A stretch of DNA of 64,000 bases from the sequence record PZ445523.1, one strand, 5' to 3'. Source of the stretch: a phage. The number at the start of each line of letters is the position of its first letter. The first letter of the stretch is position 1. A program made the position numbers and the translations under genes. Of the stretch, positions 21,547 to 44,717 are shown piece after piece. The notes under the pieces are model-generated. The model did no database searches and was not told the DNA's origin. It saw only the letters and a program-made list of their open reading frames with translations.

Positions 21547-21576
21547 ATAGTACCACAGAGGAACGGTCTTGTAAAC
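21547..21576 (-). promoter_or_regulatory. Early promoter
   Basis: GTTTAC, 18 nt, TACTAT. Confidence 0.6.
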
Positions 21577-23682: not shown

Positions 23683-23712
23683 ATAGTACCATAAAGCTTT
23701 ATGCTTGTAAAC
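23683..23712 (-). promoter_or_regulatory. Early promoter
   Basis: GTTTAC, 18 nt, TACTAT; upstream of the AAA+ ATPase gene. Confidence 0.6.
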
Positions 23713-31808: not shown

Positions 31809-31838
31809 ATTATACCACAGCCAAGAGGAAAAGTAAAC
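31809..31838 (-). promoter_or_regulatory. Early promoter upstream of regB
   Basis: GTTTAC, 18 nt, TATAAT. Confidence 0.65.
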
Positions 31839-33998: not shown

Positions 33999-34472
33999 TT
34001 ATTTGAATGATTTAACGTACTGAATAGAACCTTTACTATTCACAAAGGCAATTTTACCATTTTTGTTATACATGGTAGCAGTACGCTGATAGCCATAAGT
34101 TTGTTTACCAGATTGATAACCAACTAATGCAAAATTATCTTCGCCCATTTTATTCTGCTTAGCGCGGATACGTTCATGACCGTGCGCCATAAGAACCTTA
34201 GCGTCGCCAGTTGCAATGGATCTACGAGTTTTTTCATCTTCAACTGTATTAACAAAGTCGTCAAATGAATCAAATTTAGCATGAGATTTATTATACAGTT
34301 TTCCATCTACTGCATAATTATATCCCTGTACATCCATCTCAACTTCTGTACCATCATCCAATACAGCAGTGATTTTTTGACCTTTTTTAAATTTCAAAAG
34401 ATCAGTAAAAGATTCAGCAATAATTTGAGAATTAATAGCTGCTTCAGTAATAAATTCTTGATATGTTTTCAT
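33999..34472 (-). CDS. Internal-protein-like head protein with capsid targeting sequence
   Basis: N-terminus MKTYQEFITEAA matches the T4 internal-protein capsid targeting sequence consensus; lysine-rich. Confidence 0.65.
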   Translation of the reverse strand: MKTYQEFITEAAINSQIIAESFTDLLKFKKGQKITAVLDDGTEVEMDVQGYNYAVDGKLYNKSHAKFDSFDDFVNTVEDEKTRRSIATGDAKVLMAHGHERIRAKQNKMGEDNFALVGYQSGKQTYGYQRTATMYNKNGKIAFVNSKGSIQYVKSFK

Positions 34473-34481
34473 ATGTTTCCT

Positions 34482-34898
34482 TTAAATGTAAATATTTTTA
34501 CCGTAATACTTGTACCAATGTGGTTTCATTAAAATTTTTTCATCAAGTCGTTGTTGACTCAATTTAATAGCTGATTTGCATGGATTATAATCATTTTTCC
34601 ATTCTACTGGAATATCGCTGATGTCAGGAACTTCAGTATCTTTTATACTGAACCCGCGTTTTAAGCATTCCGTTATAATGTCTGATTGACGCTTTCGCAA
34701 AAATTCTAACTTATCGTAAAAGAAAGTAACATGACCAGAACCTAAAATAAACTCGGAAGATATTTTAAAATCTTTAACCCGCTTACCATTTGCCACATGT
34801 TTACGAACTATACCAAAAACACGCGGCAATTCACGGTATTCTGCGATTAAATGTTGATCAGCAAGTTCAGATACTAAAGTCAAATTAATACGAGTCAT
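34482..34898 (-). CDS. denV: Endonuclease V (pyrimidine dimer DNA glycosylase)
   Basis: 138 aa; [17 protein letters not shown]...WYKYYGK, near-identical to T4 endo V as I recall it. Confidence 0.9.
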
Positions 34899-34923: not shown

Positions 34924-34953
34924 ATACTATCACAATTCTAGGAGAAAGTAAAC
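34924..34953 (-). promoter_or_regulatory. Early promoter upstream of denV
   Basis: GTTTAC, 18 nt, TAGTAT. Confidence 0.6.
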
Positions 34954-38739: not shown

Positions 38740-38794
38740 AATGTTCTCCTCAAATTATGGGCTCATAATATCTCAATCATGAGCCTATGTAAAC

Positions 38795-39101: not shown

Positions 39102-39131
39102 ATAGTACCATGGAAGGACAAGGATGTAAAC
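39102..39131 (-). promoter_or_regulatory. Early promoter
   Basis: GTTTAC, 18 nt, TACTAT. Confidence 0.6.
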
Positions 39132-39265
39132 AGTTTTGTGAAAAAATTTTTAAAAAGTTTTAGGGAATTCTAGGGTCAGGAGGGGCAATTAAAAGGTAGG
39201 ATAATATATTATAAAGGGTATAAACTAAATGATGCCTAGAGAGGCCCGGAAAGGCCTAGATACCA

Positions 39266-39292
39266 AAAAGCCCCAACCTTTCGGTCGGGGCT
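39266..39292 (-). terminator. Intrinsic terminator, copy 1 of a duplicated element
   Basis: 10-bp stem AGCCCCGACC / GGTTGGGGCT with GAAA loop and U-tract; identical to 39801-39827. Confidence 0.7.
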
Positions 39293-39299
39293 AAGAATG

Positions 39300-39761
39300 T
39301 TATTTGATTTGTTTAGCAGACCAAATGCGGTCTTTAATAATTTTTTGGATGTCTTCAACATACTCTAGGTCATGAGCATGTGGATTATCTTTGAAACTAT
39401 GAGCTCGCGCAAGTTTCTGGCCTTCGGTCTTAATTATCAAAAGTTCTTTAAGAATTGCTTCATATCTAGAGATAATTCCTTTAGCAATATTTTTTTCTTG
39501 TGCTGCTTTAGGGTCAGCCTTAGGAGCAGGTTTACCAGAAGGTTTTTCGAAAGCCGCACCAGTAGCAACCAGGCTTTTCCAGGCGGTGGTAACATAGTTA
39601 CCCACAAAGCCTTCAGCTCTCATATCGTCATAGAACTTGTACCGAGATTCGTCAGAAGCATCTTTATAAGAATATTTACCAGCTTTAATAGCAGCAGTTG
39701 CTACAGCGCGAACATCTGAAGCGGATGCTTCGGTCATTAAAAATTGAGCATAAGTTTTCAT
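39300..39761 (-). CDS. Internal-protein-like head protein with capsid targeting sequence
   Basis: N-terminus MKTYAQFLMTEA; late promoter TATAAATA 25 nt upstream; flanked by identical terminator hairpins. Confidence 0.6.
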   Translation of the reverse strand: MKTYAQFLMTEASASDVRAVATAAIKAGKYSYKDASDESRYKFYDDMRAEGFVGNYVTTAWKSLVATGAAFEKPSGKPAPKADPKAAQEKNIAKGIISRYEAILKELLIIKTEGQKLARAHSFKDNPHAHDLEYVEDIQKIIKDRIWSAKQIK

Positions 39762-39789: not shown

Positions 39790-39797
39790 TATTTATA
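39790..39797 (-). promoter_or_regulatory. Late promoter upstream of ip-like gene
   Basis: Minus-strand TATAAATA about 25 nt upstream of the start at 39761. Confidence 0.55.
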
Positions 39798-39800
39798 TCA

Positions 39801-39827
39801 AAAAGCCCCAACCTTTCGGTCGGGGCT
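39801..39827 (-). terminator. Intrinsic terminator, copy 2 of a duplicated element
   Basis: Same 27-nt hairpin as 39266-39292. Confidence 0.7.
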
Positions 39828-39831
39828 AAGC

Positions 39832-42292: not shown

Positions 42293-42478
42293 TTATTCAC
42301 CTTTAGAAATTTTATCCATAACGATAGCGATTAAACCAATTAAAAATGCTACTACAAGTGAAAACACATTTTCTGCTGTAGTCAGTAATCCGCATATAAA
42401 TCCAACAAACATTGAAAAACTAAAAGCGGAAGCAGAAATTGCAATAGCAACATTTCGAATTAATTCACAGCGTTTCAT
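42293..42478 (-). CDS. Small membrane protein
   Basis: 61 aa, two hydrophobic helices; own early promoter. Confidence 0.4.
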   Translation of the reverse strand: MKRCELIRNVAIAISASAFSFSMFVGFICGLLTTAENVFSLVVAFLIGLIAIVMDKISKGE

Positions 42479-42506
42479 TTTATTCTCCTCAGTAGTTGAT
42501 AGGGTA

Positions 42507-42536
42507 ATAATATCACCACCCTATCTAAAAGTAAAC
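42507..42536 (-). promoter_or_regulatory. Early promoter
   Basis: GTTTAC, 18 nt, TATTAT; spacer is palindromic. Confidence 0.6.
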
Positions 42537-42546
42537 GGTTTATAAA

Positions 42547-42855
42547 CTATTTTATTCCGCGTGATGCAATTGTGTTCTGTCGTTTAACGCCAGTTTGTTT
42601 AAAGTCATGATTGTCGATTTGATCGGTACGAGCAACTCCGAATGATGATTTGATCTTAGCTTTAGATCCTTTAGTTATAGAAATAAACATCTCGGAAGCC
42701 CCTTTCTTAAAGTCCGAGGCGATTACTTCAACGCCGTTCTTAGCAAGTGACTTCAGAATTGCCTCCGCATACTCATCGTCAAGACTCGCCTGAGTATTAA
42801 TAACGAATGTCTTTGGTGCAGCAGCTTCATTGATAAATTCTTTAAATGTTTTCAT
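42547..42855 (-). CDS. Internal-protein-like protein with capsid targeting sequence (ipI-like position)
   Basis: N-terminus MKTFKEFINEAAA; adjacent to 57B as ipI is in T4. Confidence 0.6.
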   Translation of the reverse strand: MKTFKEFINEAAAPKTFVINTQASLDDEYAEAILKSLAKNGVEVIASDFKKGASEMFISITKGSKAKIKSSFGVARTDQIDNHDFKQTGVKRQNTIASRGIK

Positions 42856-42885
42856 TTTATTTTCCTAATTAATTTTGATAGGGTA

Positions 42886-42915
42886 ATAGTATCACTACTA
42901 AAACCCTGTGTAAAC
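42886..42915 (-). promoter_or_regulatory. Early promoter of ipI-like gene
   Basis: GTTTAC, 18 nt, TACTAT. Confidence 0.6.
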
Positions 42916-42927
42916 AACTTTGTGAAA

Positions 42928-43185
42928 TTATTTTAAATCTTCTAATCGTTTCTTCATCTTAGAACCGTTCTTAGCGATTTCGCCTGCATCAGAGCATAAT
43001 GCTAAAAGCGCTTTAACTTTAGTTTGGTCTCCTTTAAAAGATGAAGGATCAACAGCAGCAGCAAGTTCTTTAATACGAGAGAAAAGACGCTCAGCTTCAG
43101 CTAAAGCCATTCCAAGCTTTACTTCCATACCATGAGAAGATTCAGTAATAGTAGTTTTTGTAGCAAACTCTTTGAAAGTTTTCAT
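42928..43185 (-). CDS. Internal-protein-like protein with capsid targeting sequence
   Basis: N-terminus MKTFKEFATKT; promoter and leader are near-duplicates of those of the neighbour. Confidence 0.55.
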   Translation of the reverse strand: MKTFKEFATKTTITESSHGMEVKLGMALAEAERLFSRIKELAAAVDPSSFKGDQTKVKALLALCSDAGEIAKNGSKMKKRLEDLK

Positions 43186-43215
43186 TTTATTTTCCTAATT
43201 AATTTTGATGAGGTA

Positions 43216-43245
43216 ATAGTATCACTACCTCATCAGTATGTAAAC
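43216..43245 (-). promoter_or_regulatory. Early promoter of second ip-like gene
   Basis: GTTTAC, 18 nt, TACTAT; near-duplicate of the promoter at 42886-42915. Confidence 0.6.
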
Positions 43246-43257
43246 AACTTTGTGAAA

Positions 43258-43942
<685 letters not shown>

Positions 43943-43943
<1 letters not shown>

Positions 43944-44668
43944 TATAGTACCTTTAGTGTATTTTTAATTTTAGAAAAAAGTTCTTCAAGAGAACCATCG
44001 TTTGTAATTACTAAATCGCCATCACGAATTGGCAATCCAGCTTCTGTAATATGTGTATCATTGGATTTTTGACCAGGACGAACTACATGAATTACTGTAG
44101 CACCCATCGCCCTAGCCGCATCCATTTCATGATCTTGACGAGTATCAGGAACGATATAATAATCATAACCTGTGTTAAATTTATCAAGATAATCTAAAGC
44201 AAATAATTTTACCCAGTACATGCGGTCGAAGTTATTAACAATCAAATCCGTACCTAGGGCTTGCATCAGACGACGGACTGACCATTGATCTTCAATATTA
44301 TTTATAACGTCAATAATCTTGTTAAATGCTACGGAATTAACTGATTCTTGTCCTTCGTCATCAAAAACAAACACACCTTTAATTGGGCTTTTACCATTAA
44401 GATAGCAAAATGCTTGTTCCATAATCGTGATTACTTCTAATTTAGTCAGATTTAAATTAGTCTCACGATCATAGTCAATTCCTTCAAACTCTTTACGAGT
44501 TAAGCAAGGATAGTCGGTATTTGCTGCAAATACCCCCCATGCATAAACCAATGCATCCTTAATAGGACCAGCAAGTTGGTATTTAACTGCAGAATAATTG
44601 CTCATGATAAAATCAGCAGTAGTATCTTTTCCACTACGCTTTACACCGCTTAAAAAGATTAGTTTCAT
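43943..44668 (-). CDS. 1: Deoxynucleoside monophosphate kinase gp1
   Basis: 241 aa from MKLIFLSGVKRSGKDTT (P-loop). Confidence 0.85.
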
Positions 44669-44717
44669 GTGTTTCTCCTCAAATTTAATTAAGATTATAA
44701 CACACAAAACTGAAGCA

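Follow-up and report, generated by a model that had tools for sequence, protein, structure and literature searches.

Variable loci encoding internal proteins (IPs) have long been described in T4-like phages. As later papers cite the 1994 study by Repoila, Tetart, Bouet and Krisch (EMBO J 13:4181), these hyperplastic IP loci hold a variable set of IP open reading frames with a conserved N-terminal leader, are enclosed by homologous flanking blocks and lie beside gene 57B and the tRNA region, an organization that recurs at the locus analyzed here (PMC2839356, PMC4122927, PMC3012670, PMC12373910). The study is also reported to have recorded elements at the two IP loci in which an early promoter is combined with an AT-rich stem-loop, similar to the promoter-early stem-loop (PeSL) cassettes published by Arbiol in 2010 and Comeau in 2014 (PMC2839356, PMC4122927). 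The PeSLs of RB49/phi1, PST/T4 and nt-1/KVP40 resemble the cassette reported below: an upstream stop codon and AT-rich sequence precede an early promoter with a stem-loop, often lying over the -10, and the SD and start codon follow. Like the IP cassettes, they flank small variable ORFs and are tied to indels and replacements (PMC2839356, PMC4122927). Terminator activity has been shown only for a G+C-rich PeSL of RB49, and inter-cassette mini-circles, detected by inverse PCR, only for RB49 and phi1 (PMC2839356).

The cargo of such loci participates in confronting bacterial defence, each of Ip1, Ip2 and Ip3 being an inhibitor of its own, separate GmrSD type IV restriction enzyme (PMC12373910), and because the targets of Ip2 and Ip3 were found between 2022 and 2025, the internal proteins have again become an active topic. 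Delivery depends on a capsid targeting sequence (CTS), in which residues 4 and 7 govern targeting and residues 8 and 10 processing, with cleavage after L/I-X-E (PMC9026906).

The window, meaning the whole stretch of DNA analyzed, comprises 64,000 nucleotides of record PZ445523.1 and comes from a Tequatrovirus, a T4-like phage. Within it, ip7 and ip5 fill the interval between tRNA.4 and gene 57B (Table 1), and the T2 locus (NC_054931.1; ip7 69807-70115, ip5 70188-70442, 57B 70515-970) presents the same genes in the same order, on the same strand and between the same flanking genes. Alignment to T2 yields 97.1% identity over 851 nt in a single piece spanning the annotated ip7, ip5 and 57B, while the window carries tRNA.3 and segB, both of which T2 lacks at these positions. 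Judged from these sequence comparisons, this very probably (roughly 85%) is the hyperplastic IP locus of ipI type in a T-even phage (Tequatrovirus), occupied by ip5 and ip7 as in T2. The locus type is already known, and nothing here is new in kind.

Table 1. Features of the ip7-ip5 locus; positions refer to the 64,000-nucleotide window.
Feature	Position	Strand	Basis
tRNA.4, 61-aa predicted membrane protein; conserved right-hand boundary of the locus	42293..42478	-	PHROG 1692; annotated tRNA.4 in RB32, T2, T4
Third cassette copy, upstream of tRNA.4: promoter TTTACT-N17-TATTAT (42507-42535), hairpin (42498-42525), SD GAGGAG	42479..42546	-	RNA fold, promoter scan
ip7, 102 aa	42547..42855	-	PHROG 2667 'internal head protein', 2.2e-41
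Repeat copy 2: ip5 tail (..EDLK-stop), early promoter, weaker hairpin, leader, first 7 ip7 codons	42835..42943	-	109 nt at 88%, same repeat as copy 1
Hairpin 2 (Ip7 cassette): two-tier, outer stem AGGGU/ACCCU, inner stem UAGUA/UACUA	42880..42907	-	RNA fold
ip7 early promoter: TTTACA-N17-TACTAT with TG	42886..42914	-	Promoter scan
ip5, 85 aa	42928..43185	-	PHROG 3499 'internal head protein', 1.2e-49
Repeat copy 1: 57B tail, early promoter, hairpin, leader, first 7 ip5 codons	43165..43273	-	109 nt at 88% (repeat search), exact identity runs
Hairpin 1 (Ip5 cassette): UGAUGAGGUAGUG-AUAC-UAUUACCUCAUCA	43206..43235	-	RNA fold
ip5 early promoter: -35 TTTACA (43239-43244), 17-nt spacer, TG-extended -10 TACTAT (43216-43221)	43216..43244	-	Promoter scan
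Gene 57B, encoding an Acb1-type anti-CBASS protein; conserved left-hand boundary of the locus	43258..43716	-	Pfam PF23474 Acb1, 7e-60; annotated 57B in T2, RB32, T4

The preliminary description of this DNA had recognized two adjacent small genes starting with MKTFKEF and had taken them for internal-protein-like genes, and both points are confirmed. The genes lie in tandem, and the two products begin with these residues, including F4 and F7, and thus carry a CTS of the MKT(Y/F)(Q/K)EF type; both fall into PHROG families of internal head proteins and have annotated ip7 and ip5 homologues in T2, RB32 and other phages. Beyond the first seven residues the proteins are unrelated, as had also been stated, belonging to different PHROGs and giving 27% identity over 75 columns with 11 gaps by BLASTP (E = 0.003, for a single comparison). 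Ip5 shares 99% identity with Ip5 of T2, and the Ip5 of RB70, a 1994-era sequence, is present in UniProt as Q38378. At the level of sequence motifs, both proteins possess a predicted propeptide within the 10-19 residue range that ends in the L/I-X-E motif of gp21. For Ip5, the predicted propeptide MKTFKEFATKTTITE is cut before S16, giving a predicted mature form of 70 aa with a pI of 9.2; for Ip7, MKTFKEFINE is cut before A11, giving 92 aa and a pI of 9.65. The Ip5 motif I13-T14-E15, followed by S, is invariant among homologues, one of which has a 10-aa CTS (MQTYQTFITE, again followed by S), while in the Ip7 motif I8-N9-E10, followed by A, I8 and E10 are invariant in 12 homologues. Going by established T4 biology, the CTS would direct Ip5 and Ip7 into the prohead core, the gp21 protease would remove the propeptide after I-N-E (residue 10 of Ip7) and I-T-E (residue 15 of Ip5), and the small basic mature proteins would be injected together with the DNA. 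The identification of Ip5 and Ip7 as T4-type internal proteins, predicted to be packaged and injected, is supported by these features. Elsewhere in the window, positions 39300-39761 hold a 153-aa ORF, a CTS-like late gene that is possibly unannotated; a 100% identical ORF occurs in phage JK1, which has only Ip6 at its IP locus.

Both homologue families are tiny and confined to T4-like phages; for Ip7, a search of 5.8 billion proteins yielded only 14 homologous clusters, every one of T4-like phage origin and named Ip7. AF2 models of moderate confidence depict Ip5 as a helical hairpin (pLDDT 71) and Ip7 as a beta-alpha-beta-beta-alpha core of ferredoxin/ACT-like type (pLDDT 68). Foldseek searches of the PDB with these models returned generic fold matches only, none at E <= 1e-3, so that structure offers no functional lead for either protein. 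A sequence search of the PDB recovered no relatives of Ip5 or Ip7, PADLOC, NCBIfam and Pfam gave nothing meaningful for them, and a literature search on their function found nothing.

By analogy only, Ip5 and Ip7 would be first-response counter-defence proteins, each directed against a narrow host target. The preliminary description had named them candidate anti-restriction cargo. A 2025 screen of Ip4-Ip10 against GmrSD variants confirmed no target for them, and an apparent signal between ip7 and CLS_011 was not reproducible (PMC12373910, Supplementary Fig. 9). T2, which carries the same IP set, is moreover restricted by GmrSD-ECOR17 and GmrSD-ECOR21 (PMC12373910), and in view of both results an anti-restriction role for Ip5 and Ip7 remains an analogy. 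Neither protein is related to a proven inhibitor: both cluster apart from IpI, show no sequence match to IPI* (2JUB) and do not have it among their top 50 Foldseek hits. The screen would also suit a different role, in which Ip5 and Ip7 serve mainly as accessory proteins of the head core or the DNA, acting in charge neutralization or assembly kinetics without a specific anti-defence target; the predicted mature forms are small and basic, IPIII affects the rate of head assembly, and IPs contact DNA phosphates. Such a role is nevertheless rather doubtful, as all three resolved T4 IPs are specific GmrSD inhibitors (PMC12373910), IPs are dispensable on laboratory hosts (PMC9026906), their presence or absence is extremely variable and their families narrow, as is typical of arms-race genes, and the anti-CBASS gene 57B/Acb1 lies next to the locus. 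What Ip5 and Ip7 target is worth finding out, a question that the literature has already posed.

Both ip5 and ip7 stand behind the same module of ~110 bp. It takes in the end of the upstream gene with its last codons and stop, then AT-rich sequence and a T4 early promoter (TTTACA-N17-TG-n-TACTAT); a stem-loop surrounds the -10, and an AU-rich leader with an SD leads into the first seven CTS codons. The near-identical promoter-leader blocks of ~70 bp in the preliminary description correspond to the intergenic parts of this repeat (42856-42927 and 43186-43257), which agree at 63 of 72 positions (87.5%). The repeat extends 21 nt, the CTS codons, into each downstream coding sequence and covers 16 nt at the 3' end of each upstream gene, both of which terminate in ...DLK-stop (..DDLK-stop for 57B, in copy 1). 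Identity is exact in runs of 31, 17 and 32 nt, and all nine intergenic mismatches are located in the two hairpin arms. The ip5 promoter fits TTTACW-N17-TAYWAT, the early-promoter consensus for the PST/T4 pair (PMC4122927), and in both blocks the sequence downstream of the promoter is AGGAAAATAAA-ATG, so that, as in a PeSL, a strong early promoter is followed by the SD and start codon of a small ORF. In the RB32 record, Ip7, Ip9 and Ip5 are annotated as 'flanked by 43 bp direct repeat'.

Comparison of the 57B-tRNA.4 interval in ~20 related phages and metagenomic contigs revealed differing subsets of Ip5, IpI, Ip6, Ip9, Ip7 and Ip8, each IP gene being preceded by the same cassette. The relative order of the IP genes is constant across these ~20 loci; variation in gene order is reportedly mentioned as well in the 1994 abstract. 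Since the order never permutes in this sample, deletion, insertion and allelic replacement fit better than free shuffling. In CM8 the array differs from that of the window and contains a tandem duplication. As with PeSLs, the cassettes accompany insertion, deletion or replacement differences among close relatives.

The locus in the window is itself a mosaic in which each segment has a different closest relative. The cassette before ip5 (cassette 1) is 100% identical to those of T4 and CM8, the intergenic part of the cassette before ip7 (cassette 2) is 100% identical to PST along at least 70% of its length, the third cassette is closest to T2, and the ip coding sequences are closest to VEc74. 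Cassette 2 is chimeric: its left half matches the PST junction between Ip5 and Ip6, and its right half the leader that precedes Ip7 in RB32, T2 and P922. Chimeric cassettes with mismatched arms also stand upstream of Ip7 in RB32, FL12, VEc74 and Pu-Krd-SF5, and T2 has one as well; the ip5-ip7 cassette of T2 is an ATAGGGT.../ACCTCAT chimera, and it is here that the window differs, matching the PST junction instead. IP gene arrangement therefore varies among relatives, with cassettes that are mosaic and chimeric, and the comparison with other T-even ip loci upholds the cassette-exchange locus suggested earlier. As the module is tandemly repeated and common to several phages, homologous recombination inside it would add, delete or replace whole IP genes. 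Exchange through the module would leave expression undisturbed, and the Ip5-Ip7 junction looks like the loss of the middle gene from an RB32-like Ip5-Ip9-Ip7 array, with a crossover that would fall between the -10 and the leader.

The likeness of the blocks might instead reflect nothing more than a need, common to all IP genes, for one strong early promoter, ribosome-binding leader and CTS, with recombination incidental and the hairpin a by-product of conserved promoter-proximal sequence. The exact identity runs do coincide with functional elements (the -35 and its upstream region, the extended -10, and the leader plus SD and CTS), and part of the 3' arm, CTATCAAC, is also found downstream of the -10 at unrelated early promoters without a hairpin, for example as TACTATACAACTATCAAC at 39102-39131, 23683-23712 and 21547-21576. 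This explanation is nonetheless rather unlikely. Identity also covers positions without a function, the DLK codons that end two unrelated genes upstream. Breakpoints fall inside the cassettes, as the chimeras and the mosaicism from segment to segment indicate. The hairpin arms vary yet stay complementary, and stems of this kind are missing from most of the window's other early promoters.

The hairpins of the three cassettes differ in strength. Hairpin 1 has 13 pairs including G.U as RNA (MFE -17.4 kcal/mol, z = -3.35, equalled by 2 of 200 shuffles) and reaches -8.1 kcal/mol as DNA; as it encloses the -10, it can form only in read-through RNA or single-stranded DNA. Hairpin 2, whose register is unlike those of the other two, has an MFE of -12.9 to -14 kcal/mol (z = -2.09), and hairpin 3, GAUAGGGUGGUG-AUAU-UAUUACCCUAUC, folds at -16.0 kcal/mol. 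The preliminary description had read a palindrome in each of the first two cassettes, differing by compensatory changes. The Ip5 cassette does carry gatgaggta...tacctcatc, but gatagggta...ccctatc is absent from the Ip7 cassette, where the opposite arm is accctgtg; assigning it there was the one error of that description. A perfect gatagggt/accctatc palindrome belongs to the third cassette, just beyond the interval that had been covered, so the compensatory GA/TC versus AG/CT relation is real but links cassette 1 to cassette 3 and not to cassette 2. Overall, the earlier observation is partly confirmed, and its interpretation is supported, re-deriving published work.

Two conventional functions were considered and rejected for these stems. 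An intrinsic (Rho-independent) terminator would combine a G+C-rich stem with a U-run, and since the hairpins have no U-run, this reading fails; no terminator-like site was called at any of the three cassettes, the stems being followed by AAAAUUAAUU in place of a U-run and by A-rich tails, CAAAAUUAAUU behind hairpins 1 and 2 and CAACUACUGAGG behind hairpin 3. SD sequestration does not apply, as the 3' arm stops ~20 nt before the ATG, clear of the SD; at other promoters in the window, SD sequestration does apply. Rfam contains no family at the hairpins.

Conservation was assessed in 37 distinct cassettes from related phages, drawn from an annotated phage collection and one metagenome scan; a pattern scan of IMG/VR gave only 24 stretches, few of them T4-like. 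A fold of -10 kcal/mol or better was found for 32 of the 37, with a mean of -12.6 kcal/mol compared to -10.6 +/- 0.41 when arms were randomly re-paired (0/2000). Stem cells are paired in 95.6% of cases, both partners have changed at two of the pairs, and G.U pairs appear as intermediates. Covariation scores 0.183 versus 0.139 (3/500); this value comes from two neighbouring base pairs, and in sequences this closely related the independent events are few. Through G.U-bridged changes, either type of 3' arm can pair with the 5' arm GAUGGGGUA. In Mosigvirus, Jiaodavirus, Karamvirus and MHG19, stem registers are shifted with overlap of the -10 always kept. The hairpin is thus usually kept in these cassettes of related phages, bearing out the earlier expectation of a conserved hairpin; as in PeSLs, a promoter-overlapping stem-loop is kept as a structure, and the Ip7 copy of the window is the weakest.

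The palindrome could alternatively work as DNA, as a cruciform or single-strand hairpin that draws recombination or a structure-specific nuclease, or that modulates promoter melting. Arbiol et al. speculate that PeSL stems may be targets of a DNA-binding recombination protein and found a crossover inside a loop (PMC2839356), and the chimeras here break between the two arms. A DNA role is nevertheless improbable, because 13 of the non-Watson-Crick stem cells are G.U, all on the sense strand, sense RNA is more stable than antisense in 33 of 37 cassettes (by 8-10 kcal/mol in some), and the DNA stems are weak (-6 to -8 kcal/mol, z = -0.9 to -2.3). As it is centred on the -10 of a strong promoter, the inverted repeat might also be read as an operator at which a dimeric regulator, from phage or host, controls early transcription. 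This is highly improbable, since one genome contains both GATGAGG and GATAGGG arms, each always changing in step with its partner arm, and other genera hold the stem in shifted registers with unrelated sequence, which fits base pairing and not sequence-specific protein recognition.

An RNA-level role would concern transcripts read through from upstream promoters, on which the stem-loop would act as an attenuator, insulator or 3'-end stabilizer, as proposed for PeSLs; this is the least supported step of the mechanism. The 5' arm is absent from transcripts begun at the local promoter, and as the stem-loop occurs only in read-through transcripts, including those from the gene 1 late promoter, it could distinguish read-through from locally initiated mRNA in processing, stability or insulation. 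Two readings are tentative possibilities: the stem-loop may be a selected RNA element kept by compensatory and G.U-bridged changes, and Ip5 and Ip7 may each neutralize a host first-response defence beyond the GmrSD variants screened.

Compared with the closest known systems, Ip5 and Ip7 have in common with T4 IPI* (PDB 2JUB), Ip2 and Ip3 the CTS, the gp21 motifs, a mature form that is small and basic, early expression, and a place in the same or the sister locus; they differ in showing no similarity of sequence or predicted fold, and in that no tested GmrSD variant has so far been inhibited by them. Arbiol et al. regard the elements of the IP loci as analogues rather than homologues of PeSLs, with T4-type early promoters, weaker AT-rich stems and no polyG/polyC (PMC2839356), and the repeat described here, unlike a PeSL, also takes in coding sequence in the form of the CTS codons. 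In practical terms, the locus adds one more natural Ip5+Ip7 array of T2 type, with a chimeric junction cassette marking a recombination site. Nothing essential separates it from the hyperplastic IP loci of the 1994 account as cited in later papers, and it stands as a textbook case of T4-like phages varying their injected counter-defence cargo.

The preliminary description had reported two promoter-leader blocks, and the duplication proved to be real and longer than claimed: the copies extend over 109 nt at 88% identity, each overlapping the final codons of one of two unrelated upstream genes, which both end in DLK-stop, and taking in the first seven codons of an internal protein (IP) gene. Within the 72-nt intergenic blocks, 63 of 72 positions are identical and all nine mismatches fall in the two arms of a hairpin, while the exact runs span 31 nt (stop region and -35), 17 nt (extended -10) and 32 nt (leader, SD and start of the coding sequence). 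A promoter scan identified the expected early promoter in both blocks, TTTACA-N17-TACTAT with TG, in agreement with the T4/PST consensus quoted in PMC4122927. The downstream coding sequences are unrelated, as had been stated, with MKTFKEF the only stretch common to the two proteins.

Features of the IP locus and of related elements elsewhere in the window
Feature	Coordinates	Strand	Remark
Late promoter TATAAATA	44299-44306
gene 1	43943-44707	minus	T4-like gene run, preceded by gene 2 and gene 3
57A	43713-43943	minus	between gene 1 and 57B
57B	43258-43716	minus	Pfam Acb1 match, 7e-60
Repeat, ip5 copy	43165-43273
ip5	42928-43185	minus	85-aa ORF; annotated ip5 in T2
Repeat, ip7 copy	42835-42943
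ip7	42547-42855	minus	102-aa ORF; annotated ip7 in T2
Third cassette copy	42479-42546		upstream of tRNA.4
tRNA.4	42293-42478	minus	then tRNA.3, tRNA.2, eight tRNA genes, segB
Terminator hairpin CTTAGCCCCGACCGAAAGGTTGGGGCTTTTT	39800-39830		exact 31-nt copy
Late promoter TATAAATA	39790-39797		T4 late-promoter consensus; 29 nt before ATG of 153-aa ORF
153-aa ORF	39300-39761	minus	MKTYAQFLMTE|ASAS start
Terminator hairpin CTTAGCCCCGACCGAAAGGTTGGGGCTTTTT	39265-39295		exact 31-nt copy
Early promoter	38765-38794	minus	outside IP locus
denV promoter	34924-34953
denV	34482-34898
Ip4	33999-34472	minus	157 aa; MKTYQEFITE|A
Early promoter	31809-31838	minus	upstream of regB
Early promoter	21547-21576	minus

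More than 700 Tequatrovirus and related records match the region by megablast against the phage collection. Phage T2, which annotates both genes there, aligns to 851 nt of the locus in a single piece at 97.1%, and RB32 carries Ip7-Ip9-Ip5 at the same site with the record remark "flanked by 43 bp direct repeat". The two ORFs belong to separate PHROGs families of "internal head protein" (2667 and 3499); in a collection of 5.8 billion proteins, related clusters number 14 for Ip7 and five for Ip5; they are confined to T4-like phages, and those with names are called Ip7 or Ip5. Given the Acb1 match of 57B, the injected-protein locus directly adjoins another counter-defence gene. Acb1 is an anti-CBASS nuclease; elsewhere 57B is often labelled "RNA ligase" or hypothetical.

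Eighteen annotated phages and 15 metagenomic contigs supplied the 57B-tRNA.4 interval, and the ORFs bearing a capsid targeting sequence (CTS) were clustered. The arrays comprise IpI (T4), Ip5-Ip7 (T2 and the window), Ip5-Ip9-Ip7 (RB32), Ip5-Ip9-Ip7-Ip8 (VEc74), Ip9-Ip7 (FL12 and Pu-Krd-SF5), Ip5-Ip6 (PST and several contigs), Ip5-IpI (RB14), IpI-Ip7 (P922), Ip6 (teqhad and JK1) and Ip5 alone (one contig). Shigella phage CM8 (MK962750.1, 70034-74144) carries a tandem duplication, 57B-Ip5-IpI-57B'(partial)-Ip5-IpI-Ip8-tRNA.4, which, if not an artefact of assembly, looks like the amplification of a segment carrying counter-defence cargo. Across about 20 phages and contigs the order is constant, Ip5 followed by IpI, Ip9 or Ip6, then Ip7, then Ip8, with IpI, Ip9 and Ip6 acting as alternatives for one slot. 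This invariant order is better matched by deletion, insertion and allelic replacement through recombination between cassettes than by free permutation.

Within the window's own locus, the nearest relative differs segment by segment. T4 and CM8 have the identical sequence for cassette 1 (ahead of ip5), VEc74 comes closest for the ip5 and ip7 coding sequences, and cassette 2 (ahead of ip7) agrees at 100% with the PST Ip5-to-Ip6 junction for 70% or more of its length before passing into an Ip7-type leader; T2 is closest for cassette 3. Chimeric cassettes with mismatched arms precede Ip7 in RB32, VEc74, FL12 and Pu-Krd-SF5, and one more occurs in T2; the breakpoints therefore fall between the arms. 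These differing IP subsets and mosaic cassettes bear out the earlier interpretation of a cassette-exchange locus for internal proteins.

The preliminary description, largely correct, had misplaced one of two palindromes said to differ by compensatory changes. The Ip5 cassette does contain GATGAGGTA...TACCTCATC, forming as RNA a hairpin of 13 pairs (-17.4 kcal/mol, z = -3.35), whereas the other palindrome is absent from the Ip7 cassette, which has only AGGGT/ACCCT and an inner stem in another register (-12.9 to -14 kcal/mol); it is in the third cassette that GATAGGGT/ACCCTATC forms a perfect palindrome (-16.0 kcal/mol). A fold of -10 kcal/mol or better is reached by 32 of the 37 distinct cassette cores, and 33 of the 37 are stabler as sense than as antisense RNA. 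Their mean energy is -12.6 kcal/mol, against -10.6 +/- 0.41 when 5' and 3' halves were randomly re-paired (0 of 2000 as low). When 17 cassettes sharing one register were aligned without gaps, 95.6% of cells were paired. Two adjacent pairs differ on both sides, G-C/A-U being replaced by A-U/G-C, and G.U intermediates occur; the 5' arm variant GATGGGGTA pairs through G.U with both 3'-arm types. The covariation score is 0.183 versus 0.139 +/- 0.017 in shuffles that ignore relatedness (3/500). With few events among related sequences, this gives modest comparative support to the conserved hairpin that had been proposed.

An intrinsic terminator does not describe these stems: in a terminator scan of the three cassettes no U-run followed them and none was called terminator-like, and no Rfam family matched. 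In Mosigvirus, Jiaodavirus, Karamvirus and phage MHG19 the stem still overlaps the -10 in shifted registers and with different sequences, which argues for base pairing over a protein operator. Since the -10 lies inside the stem, a locally started transcript lacks the 5' arm, and the structure is therefore possible only in read-through RNA, for which the late promoter within gene 1 is one source, or in single-stranded DNA.

Most remaining early promoters of the window lack comparable stems. At 38765-38794, a 10-bp stem, GGCUCAUGAU/AUUAUGAGCC, encloses the -10 in the design of the IP cassettes (-14.3 to -16.4 kcal/mol, z = -4.0). At 21547-21576 and 31809-31838, the spacer is complementary to its own downstream SD (about 13 pairs; -20.9 and -21.5 kcal/mol, z = -4.7 and -4.3), so that the predicted folds would sequester the SD in upstream read-through RNA and leave it free in locally initiated RNA.

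Regarding the proteins, IP propeptides have 10-19 residues, CTS residues 4 and 7 serve targeting and 8 and 10 processing, and gp21 cleaves after L/I-X-E (PMC9026906). Ip7 (MKTFKEFINE|A) and Ip5 (MKTFKEFATKTTITE|S) obey these rules, consistent with the CTS assignment made earlier; the cleavage-motif residues are invariant among homologues, one Ip5 homologue having the 10-residue form MQTYQTFITE|S. The predicted mature proteins have 92 aa (Ip7, pI 9.65) and 70 aa (Ip5, pI 9.21), and we infer that both are packaged, cleaved and injected.

Two further CTS-type genes lie elsewhere in the window. Ip4 (Pfam DUF7412, PHROG 3155), in the other IP locus, begins 9 nt past denV without its own promoter cassette and is thus presumably co-transcribed from the denV promoter. 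The 153-aa ORF belongs to neither canonical IP locus; it is situated between the tRNA-Arg/stable-RNA region and e.8 and is flanked by the terminator copies. Homologues begin MKTYNEFLNESVLTE or MKSYAQFLNEVVLNE, which is the canonical CTS pattern and includes L-x-E motifs, and the mature portion is basic (pI 9.4). It occurs in 512 phage records, is "hypothetical protein" or unannotated in 25 of the 25 matches listed, belongs to PHROG 2280, a family without assigned function, and may encode an unrecognised packaged internal protein.

An anti-defence role for Ip5 and Ip7 is the best guess, by likeness to Ip1, Ip2 and Ip3, which each specifically inhibit a different GmrSD type IV restriction enzyme (PMC12373910). 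Counting against it, no interaction of Ip4-Ip10 with GmrSD variants was confirmed in that study, where what looked like an ip7 signal could not be reproduced, and T2, with the same IP set as the window, was restricted by two GmrSDs. Sequence searches and the top 50 Foldseek hits likewise revealed no resemblance to IPI*, the processed T4 IPI (PDB 2JUB), and Ip5 and Ip7 do not class as its homologues. The AF2 models, of moderate confidence, suggest a ferredoxin/ACT-like core for Ip7 (pLDDT 68) and a helical hairpin for Ip5 (pLDDT 71), and fold searches with them returned generic matches only.

Every hallmark of an IP, and of a PeSL-like (promoter-early stem-loop) cassette, that can be assessed in silico is present, and the feature is already known, with three published results reproduced. 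The hyperplastic IP loci of Repoila et al. 1994, as later papers cite them (PMC2839356, PMC4122927, PMC3012670, PMC12373910), are the same kind of locus. The cassette concept is that of the PeSLs (Arbiol et al. 2010; Comeau et al. 2014): PeSL-like analogues that combine an AT-rich stem and a T4 early promoter are described at the IP loci, and overlap between stem and -10 is listed among the commonest PeSL arrangements (Arbiol et al. 2010, PMC2839356). The reading of these genes as anti-restriction cargo likewise reproduces the published view of IPs.
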